Shown here in pieces: positions 17,754 to 35,900 of a stretch of 45,907 bases of DNA (position 1 is its first letter; each line of letters begins with the position of its first letter). The notes beneath the pieces are model-generated. The model had not been told where the DNA came from. It searched no databases and was given only the letters and a program-made list of their open reading frames with translations. The DNA lies in the sequence record SRR2962707_2488; one strand, written 5' to 3'. The position numbers were made by a program, and so were the translations under genes.

Positions 17754-18467
17754 TCACGAATTTTTCTTCGCGAAGATTGCCTTCATATGCGTGTCGAATT
17801 CATTCCAGGTAATGACAGCGCGATTTCCAGCATGGCCATCGTAATACGATCTTCCGGTCGAGGTGGGAAAGCCTGCCCAAATTCGCGCGAGGTTTTCCAT
17901 GAAAGTATGACGACTGATCTGCCTTCTAATAAAGAGACTATAGCCAGCATCCTCAAGCAATATGTCGGCCAGACGGTCCTGCACGTCGTCCGTGAACAGC
18001 GTATTGTGGGACAATCCCAGCTCATGGACCAAGGTTTTTAGCGTGGCGGGAATGAACTGGTAACGCCCAATTGCGTGGGGCTGGTTCGGCGTTGCTTCAA
18101 TCCATTGATAAATTTCATCAATCGTCATCCGCGTCGGCGGCTTGGCTGGGCGAACCCTTGCGCCGTATTGTACAGCGTCATAGCCACGGTGCCCCGCTTC
18201 AGCCCAACCAATAAGATGCTTCAAGTTCGCAGTCGGCCCGGATCTCGCGCCAATTGGTATCATGCGGCGCTTCTTCCCTGATGCCTGATGCAACATCGAC
18301 GTATTCAGGTAGATGCGTTGTTGGGGATCTGTCTGCAAAACCGGAAAGGAAACAGCGGCCACCGTCGTCATGCGGAGGTCCGCGAATGTGGTGACGTCAG
18401 CCTGTGCGACCTGTGTGCCAAATACCGTAAAAAGCGAAAACACGGCAGTTGCTTTCATGATCATCAT
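17754..18467 (-). CDS. Secreted lysozyme-like (lambda-type muramidase/transglycosylase-like) protein
   Basis: Signal peptide ending AQA; LIGWAEAG, AIGRYQFIPATL, QDRLA, LARIWAGFP motifs. Confidence 0.65.
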   Translation of the reverse strand: MMIMKATAVFSLFTVFGTQVAQADVTTFADLRMTTVAAVSFPVLQTDPQQRIYLNTSMLHQASGKKRRMIPIGARSGPTANLKHLIGWAEAGHRGYDAVQYGARVRPAKPPTRMTIDEIYQWIEATPNQPHAIGRYQFIPATLKTLVHELGLSHNTLFTDDVQDRLADILLEDAGYSLFIRRQISRHTFMENLARIWAGFPTSTGRSYYDGHAGNRAVITWNEFDTHMKAIFAKKNS

Positions 18468-18719: not shown

Positions 18720-21700
18720 TCAGTTGCCGAGGAAACCGTCGAGCTGGTTCCAAAGGGAATTGTCGAGCAACAGGTTAAAGCGGAGATAGAAACCTTCTTG
18801 GTAAAGTGCATTTTGCCCCGCCAGCGTTTCACCCGCCTTGTTGTAGCCAACCGCCAGCAGCGTGCCCTTGGTCGGGACGAATCCGAACTCGGCACCCAAT
18901 CCGTTGGTCGAGTTGCCAGTGCTATCCCAAAGATGCGCCACGTTTGCACCGACCTGAAACAGGTCATTCCCGAACTCATAGTTTACGCCCGCCTGCACCA
19001 ACTGGGTCCGCGACTTAGCCGCGATGCCACCCGACACGTCGATCGCTTGGTGCTGACCGGCGTATTTGCCGTTCACACGCAGATCGGCATCGACCTCGTA
19101 AGAGGCATTCGCCGACCACAGATGGCTTTCGGTCCGGTTGTACTTTTCCTCAAGGCGATGCTCGTACCAAGCGAGAACTTCGAGGCGCGGGTCGCTCAAC
19201 GGGCGGTAGGCCGCCCCGACGCGGGTGCGCATCCGCCGTTGGCTCTTGCCGTTTCGATTGTCCAACGCGGCCCGCGTGCGGCCCAGTACAGTCAGATCGG
19301 GTGTGACCTGCCCGGCAAGGCCCAGGCTGGCGTAATAGGTTTCGCCGGAATCTTCGGACGTGGCATCGAAATCCGCGTCCCCGATCCATTCACCATCACC
19401 GCCCCCCCATTTCACCCCAACGGCCAAGCTGGTCAGTTCGGTCTCGTTCGCGTCCAGCAGACGCGCATGTTCGATGCCTAGATCAAGCGTCGTCGTCTTG
19501 TTCAGTTTAAAGTCGGCATTCAGCCCCTGAATATAGGTCGTGTCGGTGTCACCCGGGCTACGGGCCAGTTCGGTCCGACCGCTGAGCCATTCGTTCATCT
19601 CGAAGGTAAAGCCAAGCGTGTTGCGGGACATCACGGCGTCGTCGCCAAAGTGTAGTTCGACCTCGTTATACGCACGCCAGCCCAGTTTCGGTTCGCTGTA
19701 AAGGCCAAGCGTCAGTTCGGTTGCCGCGCCGCTGCCCCCAAGGGGTTGGCGCAATTCGGCCTCGATCACAGTGCCGGCCCGGTTCTGCGGCGACCAATGG
19801 GCACCCAAGACCAGTGCCGTGTCGCTTTCGTTGTGATTTTGCGTAAGATTTTGGCGATGATCAAAGCCGATGCGGCCGCGCAGTTGCTTACTTAGGGTGC
19901 GCGCATAAAGCGCTTCGAACTGCAGGCGTTTGGTGTCGTTGATCCGGTCGCGGACGTATTCGGCAGCCAGTGTCAGGTCACTTTTGCGGTTGATCGCGTA
20001 GCCGTAGCTCAGCCGGATTTGGGTGCTGCCGGGACGGGCAAGCCCACCGCGCGCCAGAAAGTTTTCTCCGGTATGGATCGCCTCGAAGCTGAGCCGCTGG
20101 CGCTCTACCTGCAGCTCGTAAGATAACCGCGCGGCAGTGTCGGCTTCGCCCAGCGCGTTCTCTGAGCGGGCCAGCTCCGCCTCCCAGACCCCGCCGGTCG
20201 TGTCCTCGTGGCGAATGTATCCCGACTGCAGCCGCTCGCGGGCCGGGTTGCCGATTGGGGCGTCGGCATGCACCGCGCGGGCACCGATGGTCGTACGTTC
20301 GCCCACGGCGTAATTCGCCTCGCCGCCATAAAGCCAGTACTTTTCAGCACCCTCATTTTCGACCTCATAGGTGACACGGATCGACACCGGATTGCCGTCC
20401 AGATGGAACTGGCGGACGGGCGCGTCAAAGGTGATTGTGTTGCGAAAGAAATCGAGAATGTAATCCGTCCCCCGACGCATCGGGGTGCTCGTCAGGACAT
20501 CGTCACCCTGTTCGTCGCGAACCAGAACTTCTACCCTCTCTGAGCCTTGTACATAGCCGCTCAAATTCAAATCATAGGGACCCGAAACGCCGCGACCGCG
20601 GATTTCTTGCACCATCTGTTCCTGCGCCGTGCGGGCCCCAAAGACAGTGACCGACACCTTGTCGTTTTCCCAATGGCCCTTTGCCCCGGTGGCGACACGG
20701 CGCATCCCGTCCAGTTTGAACGCGCTGGATTCGGGTTCGATGGCGATGTCACCGTACAGGATGTAGGACCGGCCCTTTTCCACTTTGACGAAAAGGTTTT
20801 CCGACGATTGCGCGTCTTGACCCCGTTCGGAATTATCGCCGTAGACCGGGTAATACTGGTCGCCGCGGATGTCGCGGAACAGACGATCTTCGGTGTCGCG
20901 GTCCGAGCTGTAGCGCAGGGTCAACAGCGCATCGCCACGGATCGCACCTTTCAGGTAGACCTCGCCGCGCACGCCGGTTGCCGTGTCCTCAAAGGAACTG
21001 AACTGGTCTTTGTCCAGCAATCCGTCGCTGTTCTTGCCCAGCGATACAGCACCTTCGATCACACCAATTAGAATGCGTTCGTCTAGGTCAGGGGTAAAGA
21101 TAATGGTCGCCTCTGTGCTGCCAAATGCCCCCGTCACAGTAACAAGATCCGACCCCGATACTTGCGGCGGGATCAAGTCAAATGTCGCCTCGCCATTGTC
21201 GAGGTACGCCTGCACGCCGGGGGTGCCCGCACGAATATCGTCTACGTCCCACAAGCCCAAGCGCGCATGCAGCGTCACCGTCCCCGAGGCCGGAACCGGC
21301 ATCCCGCGCACGTCGAGTACACGCACCACGACGGGCACCACTGAGCCGGGCGAGGCCGAGGCAGTTTCCGGCAGGATGATCTCGTATTTTGCGGGGGTGC
21401 CCGGTGCCATCAGGGTGATGTCTTTGCGCGCACGTTCGATGCCGAACCCGTCCCTACCGATCAGGGTCAGCGTGTTTTTTCCCGCGCCCAGTTTAACGGC
21501 TATGTATTCCAGCGCTTGGACATTATTTTTCTCCCAGCTGGTACGTTCGCCAATACGGTCAGCGCCAAGTTCGCGACCGTTCAGCAACAGCGCCAGCGTG
21601 AGGTCGGCCTTGCCCTTCACCCGGATGTTCTGGGTGTTGCGGTCGACGGTCTGACCCTCCGCAAGGTCAACGAACCCCAGTTCGGAACCCAGTGTCCGGA

Positions 21701-24458
21701 TCATCTCGTCCAGTGATTGCCTCCGGGCCGCCGCTGCGGCCACGACGGCGACATTTGCGGCCAGCGCCTTGTCTGCGGTCAGCATGTTAGGGGTCAGCTG
21801 GGTTGTCGTCGCGATACCGGATTCCCCGCGCGAAGAACGGTTCGGTGCGCGCGCGCCTTCGATTGGCATATCGGCGGCGTTGAGTGAATTTACCTTCTGG
21901 TTATCTTTAAAATGCTCGCGACGCTCTGCGACTTCGACCAGCGCCTCGGGGGTGCATTCGGCCACGGCAAAGTGTTCTGCGCGCATTTCACCGCGACGCA
22001 GCGGGATCAAACGCGAGCCACCCTGCCCGAGATCATTGGTGCGTGTAACCTGAACGCGGGTGTCTTTGGGCAAGGTTTCATTCTGCACAAGAAACGCATG
22101 GGTGACCGGACGCAAACCATAGAGCGAGTATTTTCCGTCAATGTCGGTGACGACAGTCAGGCCCTCTTGTGTAACGATCCGGACGCCCGGGATGCCGGGT
22201 TCCGACGCATCGCCCCGGATACCATTCGCATCACAATCCATGAAGACCGACCCAATGACCGTACCTTGGCGTGCCAGAACCCCACCGGAATTGTCGAGCC
22301 GGACCATAGCCCGCGCAACGTTGGATTCGCGCAGCGTTCCCGTACCCGCCTGACGACCTGACAGTACGGCGGTGTTTTCGTTGCGCCCCTCGCGTGCGGC
22401 AGCCGTGAAATGCATTACATACGTCAGCTCGTGCTCGGACAGCGGCCCGATCTGGCCAAGATCAAAGCGCATGTCCCCCCCCTGCCCGCGCGCGGGATCC
22501 TCCAGCGGTTCGCCATCCAGCATGACCGATCCCGGCACCAGCGTCACACCATGCGGCGGGCGGTCCAGCAGTTCGGCACCGATAAGCGCCTGACGCATGT
22601 TGTTGCTAAAGCCCAGCGTATAGATCACAAATTCGCCTTGGCTCACGACATCACGGTCAGTCGCCTTCTGCAACGATAGCGGTGTCCCATAGTAGGGGTC
22701 GACGGGAATGTCCGAATTATAGACCATCCCACCGGCGTGGCTAAACGCGTCACCCCAACCTGCCTCGGTCGTGATCCTGGTGAACCCGGAAAAGTCGTTG
22801 CGTGACGATGGGAATACCCATGCCGGCGCGTTGATAACGTCATAGCGGTATGTGCCTGCAGGCATTTGGCCAAAGACGAAGAAGCCGCGTGGATCGGTGA
22901 CGCTGCGCGAAATTTCGCGGTTCAAGGCGACGTCAACCAGTGCGATCGTAATGCCCTCGATTGCCGCATTGGACAGCGAGTTAAATAGAAAATTGCCCGG
23001 ATTGATCAACAGGTCGTCAGTCAGCAACGTGCCGTTGCATCGGGCAGTCGCGATCAAGGTATCGCCATCGGTGGTGGCCATCACGCTATCGCCCGGTGTC
23101 GCGGTGTCCATGCGTGCCATCGGCAAGGCGGAGGTCAAGAAGATGCCTGTGTTTGCGCCGGTCTCGGTCGCGGTCACGGTCTCAATGTCGCCAGTCTGGG
23201 CGCTGCGGATGGTGACCGTCGTCACATCAACGCCAGAGGTCAGGTTACAGCCGCCCGATGTCAGGCGCAGACGGGTATCGGTGCCGGGCGTGCCAAAGGC
23301 TTGCATGGCCCCGGTGGCGGGCTCTTCGAAGTGCAGCGCACCAGAGCTGTCTCCATTGCGGGTAAAGATCGTCGTATTCGACGCCTGCACCGCACTTTGC
23401 CCGTCATTTTCAAGATAGGCAGCCGCCGTGTTCACAACATCCACATCACCGAGCGCAGCAGGCAGGCTGACCGAAAAGACGGGATCGGTCGCACGGCCAA
23501 CGATATAATCGCCTTCAAGAAAGAAACCCACGGCATCGATGTCTTCGACCCGCCCCGGCTGGGCCGTGCGGTAGTCATGTAGCGGATCGCCAGCGCTGTG
23601 AAACAGTGCCACCATGCCGCCGGTCTGGATAAAGCTGCGAAAAACAGTGTTAAGCGGGATCACGTCCCGGACCAGCACGCCGGTGCGGACGACACCGTCG
23701 ATGCGCAGCGTTTCGCCGTCGATGGCGGAATAGCCTATGATAGACTGTTCGGAGTTATTGCGGATCCGCAACGTGTAGTCGATCACAGTCGCCGCTTCGG
23801 TCTCGCGCGCAGATTGAACCTTTTCAATCTCAAGCGTACCGCTGACAATGAGTGTCTTGCCAAGCGCTTGGCCGTTTAGAGGGGCCTGGGTTTCGATATC
23901 GGCATCGGACGACGCGGTCACAAGAAGGGTCGAGCCCAGCGTATCGCCGGGAACCGCATTTTCCGAAACGCGGAATTCATAGATCAGCTGAAGACGCTCA
24001 CCCGCCATCAAAGTAATCGGTGCCGTCAGATCGAATGCTCTTTCGCCATCATCGACAACACCGTTGCCATTCTGGTCTGCCACCAATTGTCCATTTCCGG
24101 TCAGCCCTGCGCCGGTACGGTCTTCGACGCGCATGACCGCATCAAGCGGTACGTTCCCGCTGTTCAACACTTCAAAGTGGTACTGCGCCAACGCGCCACG
24201 GGTGAGCAAAAGTTCGGAGTATCCGGTGATCTCGATGTTCGGCACCGAAAGCACCCTCGCCTCGACCGGGTTGGAGAACACGGTCTCGACGATCCCGAGG
24301 GCGATATTGAAATAGGACGATTGTGCAACGTTGCGGATTAGGGTGCCGCCTGGAACCGGGTCTGCCTTGGATGGCTGGGGAAGAAGACCACACAGCAGCG
24401 CGACGGTCTGGAAGAACGTCGCGACACCGAGGCCCGCTTTCTGAAGACAACTGCGCAC
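18720..24458 (-). CDS. Large DUF11/SdrD-B-like protein with C-terminal outer-membrane beta-barrel (putative fimbrial anchor/usher)
   Basis: Signal peptide ending SKA; DUF11 repeats (LEIEKVQ..IDYTLRIRN, LSLQKAT..VIYTLGFSN); GSVFMDCDANG..EPGIPGV; C-terminal ~780 aa with alternating amphipathic beta-strand pattern. Confidence 0.75.
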   Translation of the reverse strand: MRSCLQKAGLGVATFFQTVALLCGLLPQPSKADPVPGGTLIRNVAQSSYFNIALGIVETVFSNPVEARVLSVPNIEITGYSELLLTRGALAQYHFEVLNSGNVPLDAVMRVEDRTGAGLTGNGQLVADQNGNGVVDDGERAFDLTAPITLMAGERLQLIYEFRVSENAVPGDTLGSTLLVTASSDADIETQAPLNGQALGKTLIVSGTLEIEKVQSARETEAATVIDYTLRIRNNSEQSIIGYSAIDGETLRIDGVVRTGVLVRDVIPLNTVFRSFIQTGGMVALFHSAGDPLHDYRTAQPGRVEDIDAVGFFLEGDYIVGRATDPVFSVSLPAALGDVDVVNTAAAYLENDGQSAVQASNTTIFTRNGDSSGALHFEEPATGAMQAFGTPGTDTRLRLTSGGCNLTSGVDVTTVTIRSAQTGDIETVTATETGANTGIFLTSALPMARMDTATPGDSVMATTDGDTLIATARCNGTLLTDDLLINPGNFLFNSLSNAAIEGITIALVDVALNREISRSVTDPRGFFVFGQMPAGTYRYDVINAPAWVFPSSRNDFSGFTRITTEAGWGDAFSHAGGMVYNSDIPVDPYYGTPLSLQKATDRDVVSQGEFVIYTLGFSNNMRQALIGAELLDRPPHGVTLVPGSVMLDGEPLEDPARGQGGDMRFDLGQIGPLSEHELTYVMHFTAAAREGRNENTAVLSGRQAGTGTLRESNVARAMVRLDNSGGVLARQGTVIGSVFMDCDANGIRGDASEPGIPGVRIVTQEGLTVVTDIDGKYSLYGLRPVTHAFLVQNETLPKDTRVQVTRTNDLGQGGSRLIPLRRGEMRAEHFAVAECTPEALVEVAERREHFKDNQKVNSLNAADMPIEGARAPNRSSRGESGIATTTQLTPNMLTADKALAANVAVVAAAAARRQSLDEMIRTLGSELGFVDLAEGQTVDRNTQNIRVKGKADLTLALLLNGRELGADRIGERTSWEKNNVQALEYIAVKLGAGKNTLTLIGRDGFGIERARKDITLMAPGTPAKYEIILPETASASPGSVVPVVVRVLDVRGMPVPASGTVTLHARLGLWDVDDIRAGTPGVQAYLDNGEATFDLIPPQVSGSDLVTVTGAFGSTEATIIFTPDLDERILIGVIEGAVSLGKNSDGLLDKDQFSSFEDTATGVRGEVYLKGAIRGDALLTLRYSSDRDTEDRLFRDIRGDQYYPVYGDNSERGQDAQSSENLFVKVEKGRSYILYGDIAIEPESSAFKLDGMRRVATGAKGHWENDKVSVTVFGARTAQEQMVQEIRGRGVSGPYDLNLSGYVQGSERVEVLVRDEQGDDVLTSTPMRRGTDYILDFFRNTITFDAPVRQFHLDGNPVSIRVTYEVENEGAEKYWLYGGEANYAVGERTTIGARAVHADAPIGNPARERLQSGYIRHEDTTGGVWEAELARSENALGEADTAARLSYELQVERQRLSFEAIHTGENFLARGGLARPGSTQIRLSYGYAINRKSDLTLAAEYVRDRINDTKRLQFEALYARTLSKQLRGRIGFDHRQNLTQNHNESDTALVLGAHWSPQNRAGTVIEAELRQPLGGSGAATELTLGLYSEPKLGWRAYNEVELHFGDDAVMSRNTLGFTFEMNEWLSGRTELARSPGDTDTTYIQGLNADFKLNKTTTLDLGIEHARLLDANETELTSLAVGVKWGGGDGEWIGDADFDATSEDSGETYYASLGLAGQVTPDLTVLGRTRAALDNRNGKSQRRMRTRVGAAYRPLSDPRLEVLAWYEHRLEEKYNRTESHLWSANASYEVDADLRVNGKYAGQHQAIDVSGGIAAKSRTQLVQAGVNYEFGNDLFQVGANVAHLWDSTGNSTNGLGAEFGFVPTKGTLLAVGYNKAGETLAGQNALYQEGFYLRFNLLLDNSLWNQLDGFLGN

Positions 24459-24555: not shown

Positions 24556-27204
24556 TTAGTTGCTCACCTGAACAGTGAATTCTAACCTTGCGACCCCACC
24601 CGGCAGGATCGAGCCATGATCGCTCGATACGCTGGTCGAGGTGACCGTTGCGGTGCTACCTGCCGGGAATAGATCCTCGTCGCAAAGGCCGCCACAGTTT
24701 GTCACTGCGGTATATGCGGGCGCTGCGTCAGAGATGACGACGTTGGTTGCGGGAGAAGAGCCGGTGTTCTCTGCCTCGATCATGTAGCGTATGCACTGAC
24801 CGGGTTCGACAGGTTGACGGGTCTTGGTGAACGCGCTGTCCGGCGTAGTGGCACCATCACAATCAGCATCGATCGTCTGATACTTGTTCAGCGTCATATC
24901 CCCCGAGATGATAGTGATCCGGTCCTCGACCGCGTTGTCGGTGGTGTCGGCATCCGTAGCAGTACCCCCGTTCAGCGCCGCCCCGAGGCTGAGCGAACCG
25001 ATTTCGGTTACACCTGGCGTCGCCGTCGACGGTGTCTGCACACGGTAGATCAGCGAGATGCTATCCCCCGCAGCAAGGCCATTGACGCCGGGCGCAATGC
25101 CGTCTGTCAGGTCGTCAAAGTTGTCGATCACCGGCTCGGCTGCATCGATCACCCCGTTACCGTTCACGTCCCAAAAGATCGCGCCCGAGAAGTTGCTTAG
25201 ACCGCTTTCAAGGATTGCCCCTTCGGTGATGACTGTATTGCCTTCGTTGGTGACCGTGTGGGTCAACTCAACGATGCCACCGGGTGCGGCCTGCGCGCTT
25301 TGGTCGTCGATGATCTTTACGTCGTAGATTTCGTTGACCGTGACCTGGTTGACGATGCGGTCACCCTGACCGGACACCGAAGATACCAGCGCGATATCGA
25401 CCAGCGTATCGCTCGGAAGCGTGTCATCAGCCGGAACCACGACAACCTGGAAGGTCGAGCTACCATCTGCCGGAATGGTCCCGGTGTTGGTGGCAATGCT
25501 GCCGTTGGCTGCGCGGAACTCGACAGTCCAGCCATCAGGCAGCGCCTGAGCCAGCGACAGGTTGAAGCTGTCAGAGACCGGACCTTCGTTCTGCACCACC
25601 ATGTCGAACGTGACAGGTTGGCCTGGATCGGTTGTCGTGGTGATCCACGGATCGCCTGCGTTGGTCGGCACCGCGCCATCGCCCTCGACACCTGCAACAC
25701 CGTTCTCAAGATCGACCGTAGCTGCAAGAACCTCTCCGGAGAATTCGGCGGTCGACACATCCGACACGCCTGACGAGTCAGAGATCGTGGTGATCGTCGC
25801 CGTGTAATCGGTGGTGGCGGTCGGTGTCAGGTCGGTCGGAAGCGTCGCGATCAGGGTTACCTTGGCACTGCCTCCGATTGCGAGCGGGCCAATCGAACCG
25901 ACGACCGGGGTCACACCGTCGGCACCGACAAAGCGGAATGTCGTGCCTGCGGGAAAGTCGACGTTGGCGACCTGCAGTGTCATGCTATCGGCCTGATTGG
26001 AAAGATTGGTCAGCACAAACTCCTGACGGATCACGCCGCCCTGATAGACATCTCCGGTCTCGGTCACGATGTCGTTGTTGGCCGCATCATCATCCGTTGC
26101 CGAAGCGATGGTGCCGTTCGCGGTTCCGTCCCCGTTGATCGCCGTATCCGCAACCGCAATCGCGTATTGGTTATCGACCACGATCGAGGCGGTGTTCGAC
26201 GGTGGAAAGGCAACCCCGTCTACGTCTTGGCTGGCCACGTTGGTGATCAGGCCCGCGTTGGCAGTGCTGGCGACAACCGCTTGGAACGTCACGCTGCCAG
26301 AGCGGCCCGAAGCAACGGAAGAGATATTGAAATTAACCGTCTGTCCATCGTCGTAATCCCAGGCGATGGTTTCGCCCGACCCGTTGGTGCCATCGGCAAG
26401 CGTCGAGGCGTTGTCGTCATCCAGCGGGGCTGCCGCGTCGGACCATCGCGCCGATCCCGGCACATAGGACAGATTGCCGTCCAGAACGTCCTGCACCACA
26501 TAGTTATTCGCAGCAGCCAGACCGGTGCTGGAGTAGGTCAGGGTGATGGTCACGGTGTCGCCCGCATCAATGATGTCAGGGTTGCCGCCCGAAGCGGCAT
26601 CCGCGACCATCGACTTGACCAGTTCGACGATGGCGTCGTTCGAAATGGTCAGGGTATCCGTGTTGATATCAAGTTCAGTGCCGTCTAGCGCCGACGTCGC
26701 AGTGATGGTGATCGTGTCGGTGCCAGTCGCGGTCGACGCGACAGAGGCTTCGATGACCACACCGAACTGCTCGCCGGGAGCCAGAACCGGGGTGGACGTC
26801 AGCGGTGTCGCGCTGTCGGCAACGCCGTCCATGTTGGCATCCGGATAGAACACCAACTGCGTCGTATCAAGTGTACCGGTGTCGGCCTCGACCGCAGTCA
26901 GCAAGAAGCTGTCAGCCCCGTTGCCTTCGTTGGTGATGATGTGCGGCAGGAATGCTTTCCCACCGGGTGCAATGGTTTCGGTGTTGTCAGATGTCAGTGT
27001 GACGCCGGCAACCTGCTGCACGATCGTTTCGACCGTGTTCGACGTCACCGTGATCGTGTCACCGGCCGAGTTGGTATATGTCGCAACAGCTTGGTTGCCG
27101 ATAACTGCGCCTGCTTCGGGGGACGCGCCGAACGCAGCAGATCCGAGGGCGGCACCAACGGCTGCCGCACTTGCGGAACGCATGAAGAGAGAATGATAAG
27201 CCAA
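24556..27204 (-). CDS. Secreted multi-Ig/DUF11 protein (putative major fimbrial shaft subunit)
   Basis: Signal peptide ending AFG; Thr/Asp/Gly-rich Ig-like repeats; one complete and one C-terminal incomplete DUF11 domain; AAGGA RBS with TTG start (alternative ATG 27183). Confidence 0.8.
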   Translation of the reverse strand: MAYHSLFMRSASAAAVGAALGSAAFGASPEAGAVIGNQAVATYTNSAGDTITVTSNTVETIVQQVAGVTLTSDNTETIAPGGKAFLPHIITNEGNGADSFLLTAVEADTGTLDTTQLVFYPDANMDGVADSATPLTSTPVLAPGEQFGVVIEASVASTATGTDTITITATSALDGTELDINTDTLTISNDAIVELVKSMVADAASGGNPDIIDAGDTVTITLTYSSTGLAAANNYVVQDVLDGNLSYVPGSARWSDAAAPLDDDNASTLADGTNGSGETIAWDYDDGQTVNFNISSVASGRSGSVTFQAVVASTANAGLITNVASQDVDGVAFPPSNTASIVVDNQYAIAVADTAINGDGTANGTIASATDDDAANNDIVTETGDVYQGGVIRQEFVLTNLSNQADSMTLQVANVDFPAGTTFRFVGADGVTPVVGSIGPLAIGGSAKVTLIATLPTDLTPTATTDYTATITTISDSSGVSDVSTAEFSGEVLAATVDLENGVAGVEGDGAVPTNAGDPWITTTTDPGQPVTFDMVVQNEGPVSDSFNLSLAQALPDGWTVEFRAANGSIATNTGTIPADGSSTFQVVVVPADDTLPSDTLVDIALVSSVSGQGDRIVNQVTVNEIYDVKIIDDQSAQAAPGGIVELTHTVTNEGNTVITEGAILESGLSNFSGAIFWDVNGNGVIDAAEPVIDNFDDLTDGIAPGVNGLAAGDSISLIYRVQTPSTATPGVTEIGSLSLGAALNGGTATDADTTDNAVEDRITIISGDMTLNKYQTIDADCDGATTPDSAFTKTRQPVEPGQCIRYMIEAENTGSSPATNVVISDAAPAYTAVTNCGGLCDEDLFPAGSTATVTSTSVSSDHGSILPGGVARLEFTVQVSN

Positions 27205-27259: not shown

Positions 27260-27772
27260 TCAATCGACGCGGACGCGGTATGTGTTGAAGGCGGTTTCGC
27301 CTGCGTTGAGCGGTTCAGAGAAAGTCCAGCGGACAGATGCGATCTCGGCTTCTGGCAGCGGTTCTTCGTTCAGGGTGCCATCAGCGTCCGCCACCATGCG
27401 CATCGCGGGCAGTGTCGACCACTCAAGGCCTTCCTGCTCGGGATCAAGTTCGGCCTGAACCTCGAAAACCGCCTTGACCGAGGTGGTTTCGCCACCAAGC
27501 GTCAGCGTGACGCCTTGGGGCACCGGGGCCGCAATGACGATCCCCGCCATGGCGTCAGTGGTCGTGTTCTCATGGCTCAGTTGATAGTGGATGATTTCGC
27601 CCGGACGGACGGTGCCGCGCTCGGCGAGTTGCTCTTGTCCGTCCTCGGTCACTTCGACGACACGAAACGAAAACGTACTGGAAAGAGCTTCTGCGGAGGC
27701 CGCGAAACCGACCATCGAAAGTGCCGCCCCGGCGAATGCAGCCCGGGAGATCAGGGGGAGATGAATAAGCAT
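27260..27772 (-). CDS. Small secreted DUF11-like protein (putative chaperone/cap)
   Basis: Signal peptide ending AEA; RPGEIIHYQLSHEN...APVPQG...VRWTFSEPLNAGE...YRVRVD. Confidence 0.75.
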   Translation of the reverse strand: MLIHLPLISRAAFAGAALSMVGFAASAEALSSTFSFRVVEVTEDGQEQLAERGTVRPGEIIHYQLSHENTTTDAMAGIVIAAPVPQGVTLTLGGETTSVKAVFEVQAELDPEQEGLEWSTLPAMRMVADADGTLNEEPLPEAEIASVRWTFSEPLNAGETAFNTYRVRVD

Positions 27773-28798: not shown

Positions 28799-29419
28799 TC
28801 AGACAAAACCGGCGTTGCGGGCGATCATCGCGGCGTCAGTGCGGTTTCGTGCGTCCAGCTTGCGGCACAACGTCTTGACGTGCAGCTTGATCGTGACTTC
28901 CTGAAGATCAAGGTCGCGGGCGATTTCCTTGTTGGATTGTGCGCTCATCAGCCCGCGCAGCACTTGGCGTTCACGCTCGGACAGGTCTTTCTCGAAATCC
29001 GTCTCGTCCGGATCGTCCTTGCCCGACATGAAATTGACTGGCGCATAGGTTTCCCCCGCAGCCATGAACCGTACGGCATTCACCAACGATTTTGCCGGCA
29101 GCGTCTTGGGAAGGAACCCGATCGCGCCCATAGCCAGCGCCTGTTCCGCGATCAGGCGGGTCGCCGTGCCAGAAATCAGGCCCACCGGTTTGCCGCCATT
29201 GGCGTTCAGGGCAATCTTCAACCCCTCCAGCCCCTTCATACCGGGCATCGTATAGTCGAGCAGGACCAGATCGAACGGACCGTCTGACCGAATTTTTTGC
29301 AAAGCTTCTTGCAGATTGCTGGCCGGAACGGTTTGCGCCGCACCGTCCATATCCAGAAACATCGCGATGGTCTCGCGGACCATATCGTGATCGTCTGCGA
29401 TCAGAATTTTCAGAACCAT
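28799..29419 (-). CDS. LuxR/NarL family DNA-binding response regulator
   Basis: ILIADDH, DLVLLDYTMPG, LSERERQVL...SNKEIARDL...TIKLHV HTH. Confidence 0.95.
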   Translation of the reverse strand: MVLKILIADDHDMVRETIAMFLDMDGAAQTVPASNLQEALQKIRSDGPFDLVLLDYTMPGMKGLEGLKIALNANGGKPVGLISGTATRLIAEQALAMGAIGFLPKTLPAKSLVNAVRFMAAGETYAPVNFMSGKDDPDETDFEKDLSERERQVLRGLMSAQSNKEIARDLDLQEVTIKLHVKTLCRKLDARNRTDAAMIARNAGFV

Positions 29420-29842: not shown

Positions 29843-32380
29843 ATGAACGTCGTCAGACTATCCCGCCATAATCGCACATGGGGTAGATGCCTGCTGGTTC
29901 TGGCCCTCTTGGTGGGAATCCTGGTCGCAGGGCACATAATGTTCAGCCTTTGGAAAAGAATCCACGCGATTGACAGCGCGCAGGTGGATCACGCCGAATG
30001 GGTCTATACCCAGCTCGAAGTTGAATATCTGAAACTCGACAGGGCCATTGTCAGGGCGCGATCCGGAAATCCTGGGGATCTGGCAGACTTGCGGCAGCAG
30101 TTCGATATCTACTACAGCCGTACCGAAATTGCCCAAAATGCTGGAACAACCGGAGACGCCTTTTCCGACCTTGACCGTCTTCGGGATGTTCTGGATGAAC
30201 AGGTGCAGTTGGTTCGCGCGGGCGACACGCGCCTTTTCGATGGTCTGGACGAACTGCAAAATGCGTTGGGTCAAACCGGCGACATTCCCCGAAATGTTGC
30301 ACTGGCCTCTGTCTCATTGGCGGTGGACGTGGCTAAGGCCGAGCGCGGTGAGATCGTCAGACTTCTTGAAATACTGTCTGTTGTCGTCTTGGTCGTAACC
30401 GTTGCGCTGATAAGCGCGATCATTCGGCTTTTGGTTCAGGCCAACACCGTCAGTCGGGCATCCCGCGACGCCAAAGAACACCACCTTCGGCTGGCGACCA
30501 TGCTGCGCGCGTCTTTGGATGCGATTGTAGTCTCTGATGAAAACGGGTCCATCCTGGATTTCAACGGCTCTGCCGAAGACATCTTCGGGCTGGACCGCCA
30601 GGACGTTATTGGTGGCCACTTTATTGACCTTCTCATCCCGCCACACTTGCAAGAAGAACTAAATACGGCTCTCGAAGCGTTCCGCCGCACCGGCAAACCA
30701 CAAATTGCGGAAAGCGGACGGCGCGAACTTGAGATGATCGACAGTGATGGCCGCGTTTTTCCTATCGAATTGTCGGTGTCGCTGGCCCAGAGCAAGGATG
30801 GCCCGATTTTCGTTTCCTATATTCACGACATCACGGACAGAAAGCAAAAAGAACAAGAAATCGTTCAGGCGCGCGATGACGCTCTTGCCGCTTACCGCGA
30901 AAAATCCCGTTTTTTCGCGATGATGAGCCACGAAATGCGCACGCCTCTGAACGGCGTTCTCTCGGCGCTCCAACTTCTGGGGGATGGTCGGCTGGATGCG
31001 GAGCAGCAGAAATATCTTGATGCCGCGCTGACGTCCGGGGATATCCTGTTGGGCCACATCAATGATGTGCTCTCTATTGAACGCAGCGAAGCTGACCGGA
31101 GTGAACAGCAAACGCAATCTTGCAATATGGTGGCGCTGACATCGGGTGTGATCGACAGCATGGGGCCGCTGGCGCAGCATACCGGCAATCGGCTGCATCT
31201 TGATCAAACTGGGCTGGATGATCGATGCATCCTGACCGACCCTCGGGCGGTGCACCAGGTTCTCGTGCATCTTCTCAGCAATGCGATCAATTTCAGCCCT
31301 GATGGCGACATTACCCTTCGTGCCTTGTATCGGCATGCCGACGATGAAAGCTTGCTCCTGCATTTTGAAGTCAGCGATACGGACATCGACGTGACCGAAG
31401 CTGATGTTCCTCATCCCTTCGAAGATTGTATTGCGCTCGACAGCAGCTATGAACGTCCGGCCGGAGGCAGCGGGCTGGGCCTTGAAATTGTGCGCCGTCT
31501 GGTTCAGGGGCTTGGTGGCGACATCAGGTGTGAATCCCGCGCGGGACAAAATTCCCGCTTCATTGTGTGCCTGCCCGTCACCCTCGCCTCAACATCCAAT
31601 ACGCCTGCGCCTTCAGCACCACAGGTGGAAGAGGCACACGGAAAATCGTTGCACCTGTTGGTCGTCGATGACAACCAGATCAACCGCGAACTTCTCGGGG
31701 CAATACTCAAAAGACTTGGGCACATCGTCAGCGTCGCCACCGGAGGGCAAGAGGCTGTCGACCTTGCCAAAAGCACACGGTTTGATGCCATCCTCATGGA
31801 CATCTCGATGCCCGGCATGAACGGCATCCAAGCGACCAAGGCGATCTTGGACGGCGACGGACCGAATAACCAGACGCGCATCATACCCGTCACAGCCCAT
31901 GCCCAGCCCAAAGAACGCGAGGAATTTGAAGCCGCAGGCATGAAAGGTTTCCTGCAAAAACCGCTCAACATGGAAGCGCTAAAATCTGCGTTGGCCGCTT
32001 TCTCTTCTGCTGAAAACGCGCCCGCCGAAAACCAAACTCTACGGCAACAACCTGTGCTGAACAGTGCGCATGTCACGGAACTGCGGGAATTGCTGGGGCA
32101 GGATAGGTTGAAGGATCGTATCATGATGCTGTTGCAAAGCGTCGATGCCGATCTTCCCGACCTCACAAACACGCAAACCATTTTGGATCTGCAAACACGG
32201 GCCCATGCTTTGGGCGGCATGTGCGGCATGTTCGGAGCCGAGCGTTTTCACGTTCTCCTTAGTGAAGTCGAGACCGCGTGCAAGGAAGGCAATACCCGCG
32301 AAGCGCACGAGCTTGTCAAATTGGCACCGGCGGTCTGGCATCTAACAAGAGAAGCTTGGTTGCAACAAATCGGTGCATGA
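29843..32380 (+). CDS. Hybrid sensor histidine kinase (TM-PAS-HisKA-HATPase-REC-HPt)
   Basis: Two TM segments, PAS domain, SHEMRTPLNG, REC (VVDDN..ILMDISMP..KP), HPt AHALGG; degenerate G1 box DTDID. Confidence 0.9.
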   Translation: MNVVRLSRHNRTWGRCLLVLALLVGILVAGHIMFSLWKRIHAIDSAQVDHAEWVYTQLEVEYLKLDRAIVRARSGNPGDLADLRQQFDIYYSRTEIAQNAGTTGDAFSDLDRLRDVLDEQVQLVRAGDTRLFDGLDELQNALGQTGDIPRNVALASVSLAVDVAKAERGEIVRLLEILSVVVLVVTVALISAIIRLLVQANTVSRASRDAKEHHLRLATMLRASLDAIVVSDENGSILDFNGSAEDIFGLDRQDVIGGHFIDLLIPPHLQEELNTALEAFRRTGKPQIAESGRRELEMIDSDGRVFPIELSVSLAQSKDGPIFVSYIHDITDRKQKEQEIVQARDDALAAYREKSRFFAMMSHEMRTPLNGVLSALQLLGDGRLDAEQQKYLDAALTSGDILLGHINDVLSIERSEADRSEQQTQSCNMVALTSGVIDSMGPLAQHTGNRLHLDQTGLDDRCILTDPRAVHQVLVHLLSNAINFSPDGDITLRALYRHADDESLLLHFEVSDTDIDVTEADVPHPFEDCIALDSSYERPAGGSGLGLEIVRRLVQGLGGDIRCESRAGQNSRFIVCLPVTLASTSNTPAPSAPQVEEAHGKSLHLLVVDDNQINRELLGAILKRLGHIVSVATGGQEAVDLAKSTRFDAILMDISMPGMNGIQATKAILDGDGPNNQTRIIPVTAHAQPKEREEFEAAGMKGFLQKPLNMEALKSALAAFSSAENAPAENQTLRQQPVLNSAHVTELRELLGQDRLKDRIMMLLQSVDADLPDLTNTQTILDLQTRAHALGGMCGMFGAERFHVLLSEVETACKEGNTREAHELVKLAPAVWHLTREAWLQQIGA

Positions 32381-32663: not shown

Positions 32664-32975
32664 GTACAGATGCATTTTCGCGCAGCCGGTCCCCTGACGA
32701 TCTTCGCCACTCAAAAATCCCCGGAACCCAGCGCGCTTGGGCCAATGCAACGCTATCCCAAAGCATAGCGACGCTATGCGCGGCGGTATCGTTGATGTCC
32801 CTCTGAACCTTCGCACAACACACGGCACCCTGCGACACTGGTCAGGATCGAAACCCACCGCAAAACCACGCTCCGGCAGTAAGGCCCTATGCGCAGGGCC
32901 CCTGCCCGCCTGCTGCGGAAACCAAGAACGATAAACCCGGTGCCAAACCAAAAGGCGGATGAAGTGTTCAAGCAC

Positions 32976-35900
32976 ATGTCAAAACGACTATTGCGTCACC
33001 TGTGCGGCTGCACAGCGGCGATTGCAGCGCTGGTGGCATCCGAACTGCAGGCTGGCGATTTCACGCTAGACTGGGGGCAGATCGACTGGCCGGCGGGATC
33101 ATCCGCGCCGCTGACCACCACGTTGACGGATCAATACGGGTTCGAAATTGATGCGACAGTCAATGTTGCGGGCGCTTTTACGACGGGCGGCGGTATCGTG
33201 TCGCCGGACGACACGTCCCTGCTGGGCGGCAGCGTGCCATCGCTTGGCTTAGTCTCTGACGCACCGGCCAATCTGGGGCGGGTCGGCGATGCCACGGTCA
33301 GTGCGCAACTGACCTTTTCATCAAACAGCGTTGCCTTTCCGGTAGACGGGCTGGTGCTCGACATTCTGGACGTCGACGCTGGCGACGCAAACGCGCCCAG
33401 TGACAGTTGTGACTTTATCACGGTGACTGGCACCAATGGCGATCCAACCCTGTCGGCCGTCTCGTCGACGCCGACCTTCGTCCTAGGACCCGGCGCTGGT
33501 AGCGGTCTCACCGGACCGTTGGCCGCCAATCAGGCGCAATGTATCTTTGTCGATGGGCTGGCGGGCTCTCCGACCTCGGCCAACACCGATACCGGAACCG
33601 TTCGCGCGACATTTCCGGACGGTACTGCGTCGGTCACCGCCGTTTTTGATGAATCCATCGGCAATGTCAGAACATCCCTTGGCTATGACGCCGCCGCGCG
33701 GGACATCGGTTTTCTGGCAGCCAGTTCTTTTTCCGTCGGCCAAAGCATCTCGCTGGTCAAAACCTCGGAGCCGAACGAACTTCCCGAGCCGGGAACCACG
33801 ATCACCTACACATACTTTGTCACCAACGACGGGTCGCTGCCGTTCAACATAGGGCAGGATATCGTGATCGTGGACGATTCCGTTGCCACCGTTACCTGCC
33901 CTGCGATCACCGCCGAAGTGCCGGTCGGCGGCACCCTTGAATGTACCGCTGAATATACCGTGACCGTCGTGGATGTCCTAAATGGCAGTCTGACCTCGAC
34001 GGCGACGGCGGGTATCGGCCCGATTGGTCAGACCTTCGACGACCGACTGCAATCCAACGCCGCGACACTGACCCTGCTTTATGCGCTGGGTTATGATTTC
34101 GGCGATGCCCCCCTTACCTATCTGGTGCCATCCCACGCCCTTGTCACAGCCCCGACGATCTACCTTGGCACCATTGCCCCCGACGCCGAAACCTTTGCCC
34201 AGCCTGACACGACCGCCACTGGCGACGATGTGAACAACAGCGACGACGAGGACGGCGTCACCCTGCCGCTGCTGACACAGGGCACCATCGTCACGATCAC
34301 GGTCAATGTGGCGGGCGACGGGTTTCTTCAGGCGTGGATGGACTTTGACGGCAACGGATTGTTCGCAAACGACGCGCTGGAGCGTCTGGCCACGGACCTG
34401 CGCGACGATGGCCTTGGCGATGACATCGCGGCCGGGGACGGCGAGATCCAGATCAGGATCACGGTGCCTGACGACGCAACCACCTCGCTTACCTTTGGCC
34501 GCTTCCGCTGGGCCTCCGAGGCCGGACTGGGTATCTCGGGTGCCACGCTTGACGGCGAGGTCGAGGATTATTCCTTTGTCATCGCCGCTGCAGATCTTGT
34601 CGACCGGGGGGACGCGCCCGCCAGCTATGGTGATCCGCGCCATGTGGTGGTGCCGACGATCTACCTTGGCAGCGGATCACCCGATCTCGACATCTCGGCA
34701 AAGTACTCTGCCGGTGCCGATGGTGACGATCTTGACGGTATCGACGACGAAGACGCGACGAGTTTTCCGCCGCTTGTGGCGGGCACCACCGTGCCACTGA
34801 CGGTATTGACCCACGAGACGCAGAGCTTTCTGTTCGACTTGGGCCTGCCTGTGCTGGTGCCGGGTATCACCAACCTGCAAGTCTGGGTCGACTTCGACCA
34901 GAACGGTACTTTCGACCCGGCTGAACAGGTGGCGGTCAACTACCGCGATGGTGGGACCGGCGACACCGATGGCAGGTTCAACAACCAGATCACGCTGAAC
35001 ATTCCCGTTCCTGCGGACGCCATCGCCGGCCCCACCTATGCACGGCTGCGGTGGTCCACGACCAGCGGCCTGATTACTGATCCATTCGACGGGCTTAACT
35101 TGGACGGTGAGGTCGAAGATTACTTCGTCACGGTGATTAACCCCAACGGTCCGCTGACCTGTTCTTCGAATTTCTATATGGTCGCGACTGAACCGGGCCA
35201 GAACCTGCCCGCGCTGGACGAGCTATCAATCAGCGAAAGCGGCGGAATCTATACGCTGACCCATGTTGATCTGCCACCCAACTACACGGGCAACTTCCTT
35301 GTTACCGGCTGGGGCTATAACGAGTTGGACGGCTTTATCTATGGCGTACGCCAAAGCCCCCGGTCGCTGATGCGGATCGACGCGTCGGGCGCTGTGACCG
35401 AGGTCGCGGACCTGTCCACCCTCAGCATCGAAGCCCCCGACACCAGTTCCGACATCCTGCCCAACGGTATCATGATCTACATGTCCGGGTCCGACTCTAG
35501 TCGGTACCAACTGCTCGATATCAGCGACCCGGCAAATCCGGTTGCACTGGGGGTGCTGACCGCCACCGCCGGCGCGACCTATAGCCGTGACATGGCCTAC
35601 AACCCGCTGGACGGGCTGATCTACTTCTTTGACACCTCGCGCAACTTGCACTTTTTCGATCCCAACAACGGCGTACCGGGGTCGATCACAGTCGGTCTGC
35701 TGGCAAACGTGCCCCTGGCCGAGGGCAAGTTTTCGATGGACATCGACTCGGTCTGGTTCGACGGCTCGGGGTACATGTACGGCTTTGACAACCAGTCCCG
35801 GCAGGTCTTTGCGGTCGAGGTCGGCGCAGAGGGCAACCGCCCCGCCAGCTACGAATTTATCGAGGTACAAGGCACCGTCGACAACATGACCTATCAGGGG

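Follow-up and report, generated by a model that had tools for sequence, protein, structure and literature searches.

A split CLIPPER isopeptide domain in the subunits of a putative self-locking surface fibre of Gram-negative bacteria

Taken together, our findings favour a model, which we consider probable, whereby a tip adhesin, a shaft subunit and an anchor that share a split CLIPPER domain form a Gram-negative surface fibre, strand complementation between the subunits being followed by a self-catalysed Lys-Asn lock. The domain is divided between the two ends of the shaft protein of a marine bacterium, the Lys and Asp lying at the C-terminus and the Asn at the N-terminus. A covalent, enzyme-free link between the Lys/Asp half of one subunit and the Asn-bearing strand of another is supported by profile comparison and by structural modelling.

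The locus and its genes

The window, that is, the whole stretch of 45,907 nucleotides that was analysed (SRR2962707_2488), contains the following features.

17754-18467, minus strand: gene for a secreted 237-aa protein that adjoins the anchor gene downstream, in a conserved position, and is assigned to no family
18720-24458, minus strand: anchor gene, 1912 aa, with an N-terminal donor segment, then Ig-like domains, then a very large C-terminal beta-barrel
24243-24347, minus strand: donor segment of the anchor, residues 38-72, with N43 in IRNVA (codon 24330-24332)
24556-27204, minus strand: open reading frame of the shaft subunit, which translates to 882 aa; a signal peptide is followed by the N-terminal donor strands, roughly seven Ig-like domains and, at the C-terminus, an incomplete CLIPPER domain
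24559-24915, minus strand: acceptor domain of the shaft, residues 764-882, with K774 (codon 24883-24885) and D826 (codon 24727-24729)
26173-26643, minus strand: domain 2 of the shaft, residues 188-344, a complete internal CLIPPER domain with its own triad K197/D239/N322
27019-27117, minus strand: donor segment of the shaft, residues 30-62, with N37 (codon 27094-27096) and N56 (codon 27037-27039)
27260-27772, minus strand: gene for a small secreted protein of 170 aa with a single acceptor-like domain that has neither the Lys nor the Asp
28799-29419, minus strand: gene for a LuxR-type response regulator (Pfam)
29843-32380, plus strand: gene for a hybrid histidine kinase (Pfam)
32889-37832, plus strand: tip adhesin gene, 1647 aa, with GEVED, DUF7507 and DUF11 domains and, at the C-terminus, an acceptor (about residues 1530-1647)
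37503-37505 and 37635-37637, plus strand: reactive residues of the tip, K1539 in KLTKTV and D1583 in IYDRTP

A scripted check found all residues and codons that the original prediction had named for shaft, anchor and tip at the places given there. In the shaft, K774 (LNKYQ) and D826 (ISDAAP) are C-terminal and N37 (IGNQA) is N-terminal, so that the triad is divided between the ends of the protein as had been claimed; the tip retains its Lys (K1539) and Asp (D1583) and the anchor its Asn (N43). A Pfam scan of shaft, anchor, tip and 16 neighbouring ORFs returned no sortase or transglutaminase family and no PapD-like chaperone or PapC/FimD-type usher family. An LPXTG sorting signal is absent from the C-termini of the shaft, which ends in FTVQVSN, and of the tip, which ends in FEVRVSP.

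The genes for the response regulator and the hybrid kinase sit between the operon and the tip gene. Both are also found in 26 other loci, and the two proteins are likely regulators of the locus. The gene for the secreted 237-aa protein recurs in 25 other loci; searches of Pfam and other family collections and of the PDB gave no match for this protein, which probably belongs to the operon. A likeness of the protein P0125 to phage-lambda-type lytic transglycosylases found no support in Pfam, NCBIfam or a PDB sequence search and is not claimed here.

The divided domain of the shaft

The domain had been taken to be CnaB-like. It is instead a CnaA-like DUF11/CLIPPER domain with an Asp catalyst: Pfam DUF11 matches shaft residues 795-880 with 38.5 bits (cut-off 24.6), TIGR01451 matches with 63.6 bits (cut-off 24), NEW3 (Pfam) is matched in the shaft as well, and the DUF11 match in the tip reaches 91.4 bits. 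Shaft and tip each stop just past the strand that precedes the Asn strand in a complete DUF11 domain. The acceptor is a CLIPPER domain minus its last two strands, and the mature N-terminus of the shaft consists of those two strands. The donor was placed correctly at the N-terminus, but it comprises two strands (residues ~30-62) where a single one had been proposed.

Domain 2 served as a reference for the whole CLIPPER domain within the same protein. In hhalign, the acceptor (residues 764-882) aligns with domain 2 at a probability of 97.7% (E 1.4e-12) over residues 212-312 only, with D826 falling on D239, and donor residues 28-66 fall on residues 317-345, which places N37 on N322 and N56 on N337, in a short match that is weak taken alone (E 0.0031, probability 10%). 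The AF2 model of the shaft (pLDDT 89.1) agrees with this mapping in that donor strands 34-37/39-44 and 50-54/58-62 have their counterparts in domain 2 in strands 318-322/324-328 and 331-333/339-343. The top VIA-align match of domain 2 is the CLIPPER crystal structure 9ifr_A (Z 13.5, rmsd 2.3 Å, 122/123 residues), followed in rank by CnaA-type pilin domains; counted from the aligned ends, K197 corresponds to Lys715 and N322 to Asn806 of 9IFR, which the part of the CLIPPER report consulted gives as its bonded residues (PMC12617251). Structure search alone led to 9IFR, and PDB sequence searches with the shaft, a tip DUF11 domain, profile A1 and P0125 gave nothing meaningful. Foldseek with the whole shaft model returned generic tandem-Ig proteins only. 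The C-terminal domain of the shaft thus matches the DUF11 (PF01345) profile and has a CnaA-like fold, and domain 2 carries a full triad in one chain, whereas the C-terminal domain ends at residue 882 and has its Asn at residue 37. It is a split member of the CLIPPER group and not a standard one.

Conservation was assessed in an alignment of 135 full-length shaft relatives with 30-52% identity to the query. N37, K774 and D826 are each retained by 133 of these relatives and are among the only 37 of 882 query columns that are conserved at ≥95%; N56 is kept in 133 relatives and Y807 in all 135, and in domain 2 the corresponding counts are 131 for K197, 133 for D239 and 129 for N322. The protein ends 1-3 residues past the V880 column in 118/135 relatives. 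Among the exceptions, P0242 has lost N37, K774 and D826 together while retaining N56, P0215 has the Lys and Asp and has lost both Asn residues, and P0194 has both Asn residues and has lost the Lys and Asp. The triad is nearly invariant down to ~26-30% identity and across two phyla, a conservation that, judged on these alignments, is far beyond chance. Given the profile mapping, the conservation, the linked loss in P0242 and the complex model described below, we conclude that the split is real and selected.

The same layout, an N-terminal donor and a C-terminal Lys/Asp acceptor, is found in Thermus thermophilus HB8 on pTT27 (donor HMM i-E 1.6e-20) and in Deinococcus aquaticus, and the gene order small protein-shaft-anchor is retained in the distant relative L041 and on a Pacificitalea plasmid. 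Altogether, the system was seen in Rhodobacterales, Sinorhizobium, Acinetobacter, Granulosicoccaceae, Thermus and Deinococcus. In a phylum-wide sample, a match at E ≤1e-30 occurred in 3/400 other Pseudomonadota genomes, and a related-locus search from P0418 gave a weak Saprospiraceae match only. As far as homology searches can tell, the system is patchy in Pseudomonadota, and it is old and widespread. The family comprises 1596 cluster representatives at E ≤1e-3 and 308 at ≤1e-30. Its members are at present annotated merely as 'beta strand repeat-containing' or 'NEW3/DUF11 domain' proteins.

Complementation in trans and a candidate covalent lock

The two halves of the domain are distributed asymmetrically among tip, shaft and anchor. 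In all 14 tip-like proteins (9/9 and 5/5), the C-terminus is an acceptor that bears the Lys and Asp motifs, and a donor is absent. Anchors show the reverse, a donor without an acceptor, and their N-termini are matched by a donor HMM that was built from shafts only. The anchor Asn is present in 29/30 loci. Among 113 aligned database anchors, an Asn equivalent to N37 is found in 104 and one equivalent to N56 in all; the nine without the former (~8%) have Ser (five), Val (one), Gly (one) or a gap from a truncated gene call (two). Ser also occupies this position in the anchors of locus L004 and of S. meliloti.

An ESMFold2 complex of shaft residues 764-882 with shaft residues 28-70 scored 0.83, 0.82 and 0.83, compared with 0.02 for the best of three controls; the pass mark for this score is reached by 51/78 solved complexes and 2/108 mismatched pairs in a benchmark that leaves peptides outside its scope, and the model was computed independently of the alignments. 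The runs agree in ≥97% of contacts, with a partner pLDDT of ≥84. The acceptor strand that ends in D826 (residues 819-825) is paired with donor residues 39-44, and N37 is listed as interface, the 25 least-error contacts of K774 being with residues 39, 55, 56 and 58 and not with N37. The complex model may be reconstructing a whole CnaA domain from memorised intact domains. Completion of a neighbour's beta-sandwich by an N-terminal strand is thus read here from the model and from homology. That the C-terminal half-domain is completed by the N-terminus of another subunit, as the original prediction had it, is favoured by the complementary mapping, the near-invariance of the residues, their linked loss in P0242, the complex model and the asymmetry between tip and anchor, and we infer that binding would occur in trans.

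In our model, the tip and every shaft, both Sec-exported, would offer a C-terminal domain with the Lys on strand A and the catalytic Asp on strand C, and the mature N-terminus of shaft and anchor would supply the missing two strands, with the Asn on the first. By donor-strand complementation, the N-terminal hairpin of an incoming subunit would enter the open C-terminal domain of the preceding subunit and bury K774, D826 and N37 together, upon which the Lys would attack the side chain of the Asn and release NH3, giving an inter-subunit isopeptide without sortase or ATP. As for the order and place of assembly, we infer that growth would proceed tip first, from the tip through n shafts, until the anchor, a donor that has no acceptor, would terminate the chain and hold the fibre in the outer membrane.

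An unlikely alternative is that complementation occurs in trans with no covalent bond, as in chaperone-usher pili, and that the triad serves packing or folding only. The isopeptide bond is absent from some DUF11 domains according to the portion of the CLIPPER report consulted (PMC12617251), and the anchors in which Ser or some other residue takes the place of the Asn are presumably functional. This reading is at odds with the place of the triad among the few columns kept at ≥95%, from Roseobacters to Thermus at ~26% identity, with the one-to-one match of its residues to the triad proven to bond in 9IFR, and with the joint loss of all three residues in P0242. The small secreted protein is a further argument, since its acceptor-like fold survives without the Lys and Asp and both residues thus appear dispensable for folding.

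We regard as improbable, too, a variant with the same architecture and chemistry in which the Lys bonds with N56 on the last strand and not with N37, which would be a CnaB-like geometry of first and last strands in a CnaA-like fold. N56 is as well conserved as N37 in shafts and better conserved in anchors, and in the complex model K774 contacts residues 55, 56 and 58; yet pairing of the last strand with strand A would be expected to bring about such contacts regardless of the bond. Moreover, the bonded Asn806 of 9IFR superposes on N322, the equivalent of N37, and not on N337, the equivalent of N56, and CnaA-like domains bond their first and penultimate strands according to the same report, as far as consulted (PMC12617251). 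The pattern of loss also argues for N37: P0242 lost N37 along with K774 and D826 but retained N56, and in domain 2 loss of K197 is accompanied by loss of N322 in two of four cases and never by loss of N337, which has been lost six times with the Lys retained.

A closed, internally cross-linked monomer, in which the N-terminal strands would fill in the C-terminal domain of their own molecule, is very unlikely: the confident prediction of these strands in the AF2 monomer (pLDDT ~90) implies that they must pack on something in their own chain, but tips and anchors each hold one half of the domain, which can be satisfied in trans only, tips encoded on other contigs or ~1 Mb away retain the same reactive domain, and a string of roughly seven Ig-like domains would need to bend back on itself.

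Returning to the fibre with Lys-Asn locks in trans, the barrel of the anchor deserves comment. The AF2 model of anchor residues 1180-1912 has 41 strands at a pLDDT of 82.8, and Foldseek and VIA matched it to generic outer-membrane barrels over ~270 of 733 residues, PapC standing at rank 45 among generic barrels in the VIA list (Z 12.1). Usher, LptD and SprA-like barrel families are all compatible with these matches. The gene for the small acceptor-like protein lies directly upstream of the shaft gene, in a conserved position, and its product is a candidate for capping or chaperoning donor strands non-covalently. We give an even chance to the broader proposal that these genes represent an undescribed class of fibre in bacteria with two membranes, for which we suggest the name 'split-CLIPPER pilus'. 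Such a fibre would be built by tip-first hairpin insertion and self-catalysed Lys-Asn locks into one covalent chain, with a giant-barrel terminator (at least 32 long strands) that might be an export pore and a small protein that might be a cap or chaperone.

Comparison with known systems

SpyTag/SpyCatcher, SnoopTag and DogTag are engineered split isopeptide domains, derived from Gram-positive adhesin domains, in which a small tag that carries a strand relocks covalently with a larger catcher; SpyCatcher is of the CnaB type, its catalyst being a Glu and its bond joining Lys and Asp. The shaft differs in that its split is natural, its domain is of the CnaA type with an Asp catalyst, its tag has two strands and ~30 residues, and both parts lie on one polymerising subunit. 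If the bond forms, it would amount to a natural SpyTag/SpyCatcher that builds a covalent pilus in Gram-negative bacteria, and covalent subunit linkage has, to our knowledge, been thought exclusive to the sortase pili of Gram-positives. If the model is true, it would add a fifth assembly principle to chaperone-usher, type IV, type V and curli, assign a function to the large 'beta strand repeat-containing' or 'NEW3/DUF11 domain' family, and provide protein engineering with a CnaA-type tag/catcher pair that nature has already optimised, with Thermus as a source of thermophilic versions.

In chaperone-usher and sortase pili, too, a tip adhesin is joined to a repeated shaft that ends in a terminating anchor, and assembly begins at the tip. 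The system described here resembles chaperone-usher pili in its N-terminal donor strand and sortase pili in its covalent Lys-linked subunits, and it differs from both in that the bond is predicted to be autocatalytic and the terminating subunit carries a giant barrel of its own.

Our searches of the literature found no description of a split DUF11/CLIPPER pilus, and Table S2 of PMC12617251, which holds predicted isopeptide domains, might include these proteins. Among the systems listed in the portion of a recent review that was consulted (PMC13721041, 2026), there is no such covalent pilus system. Haloarchaeal 'tafi' and the DUF11 hooks of Litorilinea are other systems, and an isopeptide is absent from their descriptions as far as these were consulted.

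The CLIPPER domain of 9IFR is the nearest relative in structure. In the sections of its report consulted, it shares with the shaft the fold, the Lys/Asp/Asn triad, the Asp catalyst and the motifs (K on the first strand, xxDxxP and NxA), and it likewise occurs in surface-protein stalks of Gram-negative bacteria; its triad lies in one domain of one chain, where the bond merely stabilises the domain (PMC12617251). The last domain of the shaft, in contrast, ends after the third-from-last strand, and the Asn strands are on the N-terminus of the next subunit, so that the bond would join molecules.

Two filaments of other families come closest in mechanism. The archaeal thread Saci_0406 relies on complementation by an N-terminal donor strand, and a covalent link between its subunits that needs no sortase has been proposed; in the part of its description consulted, however, it has no Lys and no CnaA triad, its subunit is one small domain from an unrelated family, and its host lacks an outer membrane (PMC9715654). 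BsaA of Clostridium perfringens, a member of the TasA family, undergoes donor-strand exchange followed by an intermolecular isopeptide bond, termed 'exchange and lock', and mutations of the bond residues abolish its oligomers; it differs, again in the part consulted, in its TasA fold, its Gram-positive host and its secretion with SipW and type IV pilus genes (bioRxiv 10.1101/2024.11.04.621531). Family scans of the shaft gave DUF11-type and related Ig families only, with no homology to the Saci_0406 or TasA/BsaA families. By these comparisons, the split-CLIPPER system appears to work like the thread and BsaA filaments while lying outside their families.

The split CLIPPER domain of the shaft

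The window belongs to an alphaproteobacterium of the Roseobacter group. Its shaft protein matches one of Sulfitobacter sp. CW3 at 100% identity, and those of 29 other Rhodobacterales loci at 61-88%.

Genes of the locus (ORFs)
27260-27772, minus strand: small secreted protein, 170 aa
24556-27204, minus strand: shaft, 882 aa
18720-24458, minus strand: anchor, 1912 aa
17754-18467, minus strand: secreted protein, 237 aa
32889-37832, plus strand: tip, 1647 aa

The Lys and Asp of an isopeptide triad lie at one end of the shaft and the Asn at the other, confirming the original prediction, and sequence, homology and modelling all support, to the extent that they can, the reading attached to this observation, a putative intermolecular, self-formed Lys-Asn link. 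The novelty lies in a CLIPPER domain naturally split between consecutive subunits of a predicted fibre in a two-membrane bacterium. In this putative fibre, the tip would take the first position, shafts would be repeated behind it and the anchor would come last, each joint being made by an N-terminal donor inserted in the incomplete C-terminal domain, or acceptor, of the preceding subunit.

Translation places all residues where they had been assigned: K774 (LNKYQ), D826 (ISDAAP) and N37 (IGNQA) in the shaft, N43 (IRNVA) in the anchor, and K1539 (KLTKTV) and D1583 (IYDRTP) in the tip. The chains of shaft and tip end a few residues past a '...F-x-V-x-V' strand, and the C-terminal shaft domain matches Pfam DUF11 and TIGR01451, both above cut-offs. 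In 2025, DUF11 was given the new name CLIPPER, and the accessible parts of that paper (PMC12617251) describe a crystal structure, 9IFR, with an intramolecular Lys715-Asn806 isopeptide, Asp748 as the catalyst and a CnaA-like fold in which the isopeptide joins the first and penultimate strands; the term CnaB-like, used originally for this fold, was therefore a slip.

The whole shaft was folded by AF2 (80-sequence alignment; pLDDT 89.1) and the model searched structurally against the PDB. For residues 188-344, an intact internal CLIPPER domain (domain 2), the top match among 48,161 representatives is 9ifr_A (Z 13.5, rmsd 2.3 Å, 122/123 residues aligned), followed by CnaA-type Gram-positive pilin domains. 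Domain 2 contains a conserved triad of its own, K197/D239/N322, in which K197 corresponds to Lys715 and N322 to Asn806 when counted from the ends of the aligned ranges, not residue by residue. Profile-profile comparison aligns the acceptor (764-882) with domain 2 at a probability of 97.7% (E 1.4e-12), with D826 at D239, and spans only residues 212-312 of that domain; the N-terminal residues 28-66 align with the remainder, 317-345, placing N37 at N322 and N56 at N337, in a short alignment that is weak by itself (E 0.0031, probability 10%). In the AF2 model, the broken strand 34-37/39-44 mirrors 318-322/324-328 of domain 2, and strands 50-54/58-62 mirror 331-333/339-343. Because the match to the remainder and the strand pattern agree, the donor is a two-strand hairpin at the mature start; Asn37 does lie at the mature N-terminus as proposed, but in a hairpin rather than a single strand. 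The acceptor also holds a Cys pair, C782/C804 ('CDG' ... 'PGxCIxY'), kept in 97/135 and 100/135 relatives, which probably forms a disulfide and, if so, fits folding outside the cytoplasm.

The modelled joint and the probable partner of the lysine

An ESMFold2 complex of shaft 764-882 with shaft 28-70, run without the relatives' alignments, scored 0.83, 0.82 and 0.83, and the best of three controls 0.02; the pass mark is reached by 51/78 solved complexes and 2/108 mismatched pairs in a benchmark without peptides. The runs agreed in at least 97% of contacts, with a partner pLDDT of at least 84. An antiparallel pairing joins donor residues 39-44 to acceptor residues 819-825, whose strand ends in D826; N37 accordingly adjoins D826/A827, and K774 contacts A39 as well as last-strand residues 55, 56 and 58. 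N37 itself is outside the 25 best-defined contacts. The modelled arrangement is that of CnaA: the last strand is the neighbour of strand A, and in the other sheet the penultimate strand flanks the Asp strand. A pass means that two pieces look like one domain and says nothing of their meeting in the cell, and the complex may recall intact CnaA domains.

Scanned in full, 1.84 billion cluster representatives yielded 1596 shaft relatives at E <=1e-3 (308 at <=1e-30). From the best 150 of the 1596, 134 relatives of 800-1030 aa were kept and 16 fragments or giants dropped; these 134 are 30-52% identical to the query (median 35%) and form with it an alignment of 135 sequences. Only 37/882 columns are conserved at 95% or more, and N37, K774 and D826 each occur in 133/135 sequences. 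Conservation extends to core positions nearby (I35, A39, Y43, Q776, Y807 (135/135), P829 and F876), and the chain ends 1-3 residues past the last acceptor strand in 118/135.

Two donor residues compete as partner of the lysine, and N37 is well ahead. It is homologous to the bonded Asn of 9IFR and obeys the CnaA rule, stated in the accessible text of PMC12617251, of a bond between first and penultimate strands. The relative P0242 has lost N37, K774 and D826 together while retaining N56, and in domain 2 the loss of K197 accompanies that of N322 in 2/4 cases and that of N337 never. Two other exceptions are P0194, which lacks K774 and D826, and P0215, which lacks N37 and N56 and retains Lys and Asp. 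N56 ranks well behind as the partner, even with its modelled contact to K774 (ESMFold2) and its perfect conservation in anchors (Asn in 113/113).

Division of the halves among tip, shaft and anchor

The strongest argument for a bond in trans over one in cis is the division of labour among subunit types. In the fetched loci, every tip-like protein (9/9) carries the Lys motif and '[IV][YH]DRTP' in an acceptor at its C-terminus, and 0/9 have a donor; five further tip-like proteins in four other genomes (G002, G003, G005, G006), several on other contigs, combine the Lys with an Asp motif '[ILV]xDxxP' (IGDTTP in one) and likewise lack a donor. Anchors carry a donor directly past the signal peptide and no acceptor, and their matches are independent of the donor profile, since it was built from shafts only. 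Acceptor-only tips and donor-only anchors could be satisfied only between molecules, which would place tip, (shaft)n and anchor in that order. Of the five further tips, one is encoded ~1 Mb away from the operon, and two belong to a single genome; this distance and duplication suggest that tips are interchangeable for one shaft.

The donor Asn is present in the anchors of 29/30 loci, L004 having Ser. At the position equivalent to N37, the 113 alignable anchors out of 120 from the database have Asn in 104 cases, Ser in 5, and Val and Gly in 1 each; the remaining 2 are truncated gene calls with a gap. Anchors with Ser at this position suggest that the shaft-anchor joint is non-covalent in some lineages; alternatively, in anchors with Ser, Val or Gly the second Asn may carry more weight than supposed.

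Related loci and proteins at the two ends of the predicted fibre
L046, L047 (G005), L048 (G006), L050 (G003), L051 (G002): tips with a reactive acceptor away from the shaft-anchor operon
P0302, P0316, P0323, P0369, P0373, P0405, P0414; L004; L055: anchors with Ser, Val or Gly at the predicted bond-Asn (N43 in the window, 24330-24332), ~8%

The small protein, shaft, anchor and 237-aa protein are encoded by four consecutive minus-strand genes, and between this row and the tip gene lie a LuxR-type response regulator and a hybrid histidine kinase, both kept in 26 other loci. The order small protein-shaft-anchor is shared by nearly all related loci and extends to a distant one (L041) whose shaft is 36% identical. 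Directly 3' of the anchor gene and kept in 25 other loci, the gene of the 237-aa protein encodes a product that may in part resemble phage-lambda-type lytic transglycosylases, yet matches no family in Pfam, NCBIfam or PDB sequence search. A 650-aa ORF (15076-17028, minus strand) has a hydrophobic C-terminal tail and no family match; only 4 other loci contain it, which makes membership of the system unlikely.

The same arrangement occurs far beyond Proteobacteria, in Thermus thermophilus HB8 and in Deinococcus aquaticus, which has a shaft of the same kind. Plasmid pTT27 of Thermus encodes an 888-aa protein with '...AIQNQASASY...' past its signal peptide (donor HMM i-E 1.6e-20) and a last domain with '...RLQKSV...' and '...VIVADPVP...' that terminates at '...LQVQVQ'; a 164-aa small protein lies 5' of it, and 897-aa donor-bearing and 1795-aa barrel-like proteins lie 3'. 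Donor and barrel-like part are separate in this locus (L053, 8418-19787), and the anchor function seems divided between these two proteins. By cluster names, relatives also occur in Sinorhizobium/Ensifer, an Acinetobacter sp. and Granulosicoccaceae; only 3/400 other genomes of an even phylum sample gave matches, so the system is widespread but patchy. In a gammaproteobacterial locus of Granulosicoccaceae (L044, 318-12709), two shaft-like genes, each with donor and acceptor, flank the anchor gene. In Sinorhizobium meliloti Ak57 (L055, 9920-12782), the shaft homologue lies in two overlapping frames, with the donor in one ORF, the remainder in another and no CDS annotated in the shaft region; the probable cause is a frameshift that made it a pseudogene, or a sequencing error, in that strain.

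Anchor barrel, small protein and known systems

The AF2 model of anchor residues 1180-1912 (18723-20921, minus strand; 733 residues, 41 sequences, pLDDT 82.8) has 41 strands, of which 32 are long and consecutive, with a small beta insert after the first five. It matches the outer-membrane barrels LptD, MtrB and TonB-dependent receptors (Foldseek E ~1e-6, VIA Z 14-15.5) over only ~270/733 residues, and the anchor barrel thus looks larger than these. As modelled, it may rank among the largest single-chain barrels, and given this size we speculate that it could pass folded Ig domains, making the anchor both pore and terminator.

The small protein is a single acceptor-like DUF11 domain whose last two strands are missing, as in the shaft and tip acceptors; in 28/28 aligned relatives, Arg, Leu or others replace the Lys and Ala the Asp. 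In 28 related loci its gene is the immediate upstream neighbour of the shaft gene; the same holds for Pacificitalea and for Thermus, where the protein has 164 aa. The small protein may serve as a non-covalent cap or chaperone of donor strands, without locking. TTHA1873 (PDB 7WRK, 160 aa, 'hypothetical protein') gives Z 12.1 against shaft domain 2 and is possibly related to this small protein.

Our literature search gave no account of a split-CLIPPER fibre, the supplementary tables of PMC12617251, which could list such proteins, lying outside it, and the accessible part of a 2026 review of bacterial surface structures (PMC13721041) does not describe the system. Pfam scans of shaft, anchor, tip and 16 neighbouring ORFs found no chaperone-usher or sortase machinery; the tip-shaft-anchor logic is common to this system and to chaperone-usher and sortase pili. 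The split CLIPPER builds on known principles in a new form. It works like engineered SpyTag/SpyCatcher-type pairs and, judging from the accessible parts of the respective reports, like the natural 'exchange and lock' filaments of archaeal threads (PMC9715654) and C. perfringens BsaA (bioRxiv 2024.11.04.621531), a likeness in working and not homology. The triad of the split CLIPPER is canonical CnaA, whereas archaeal threads and BsaA use other chemistry.
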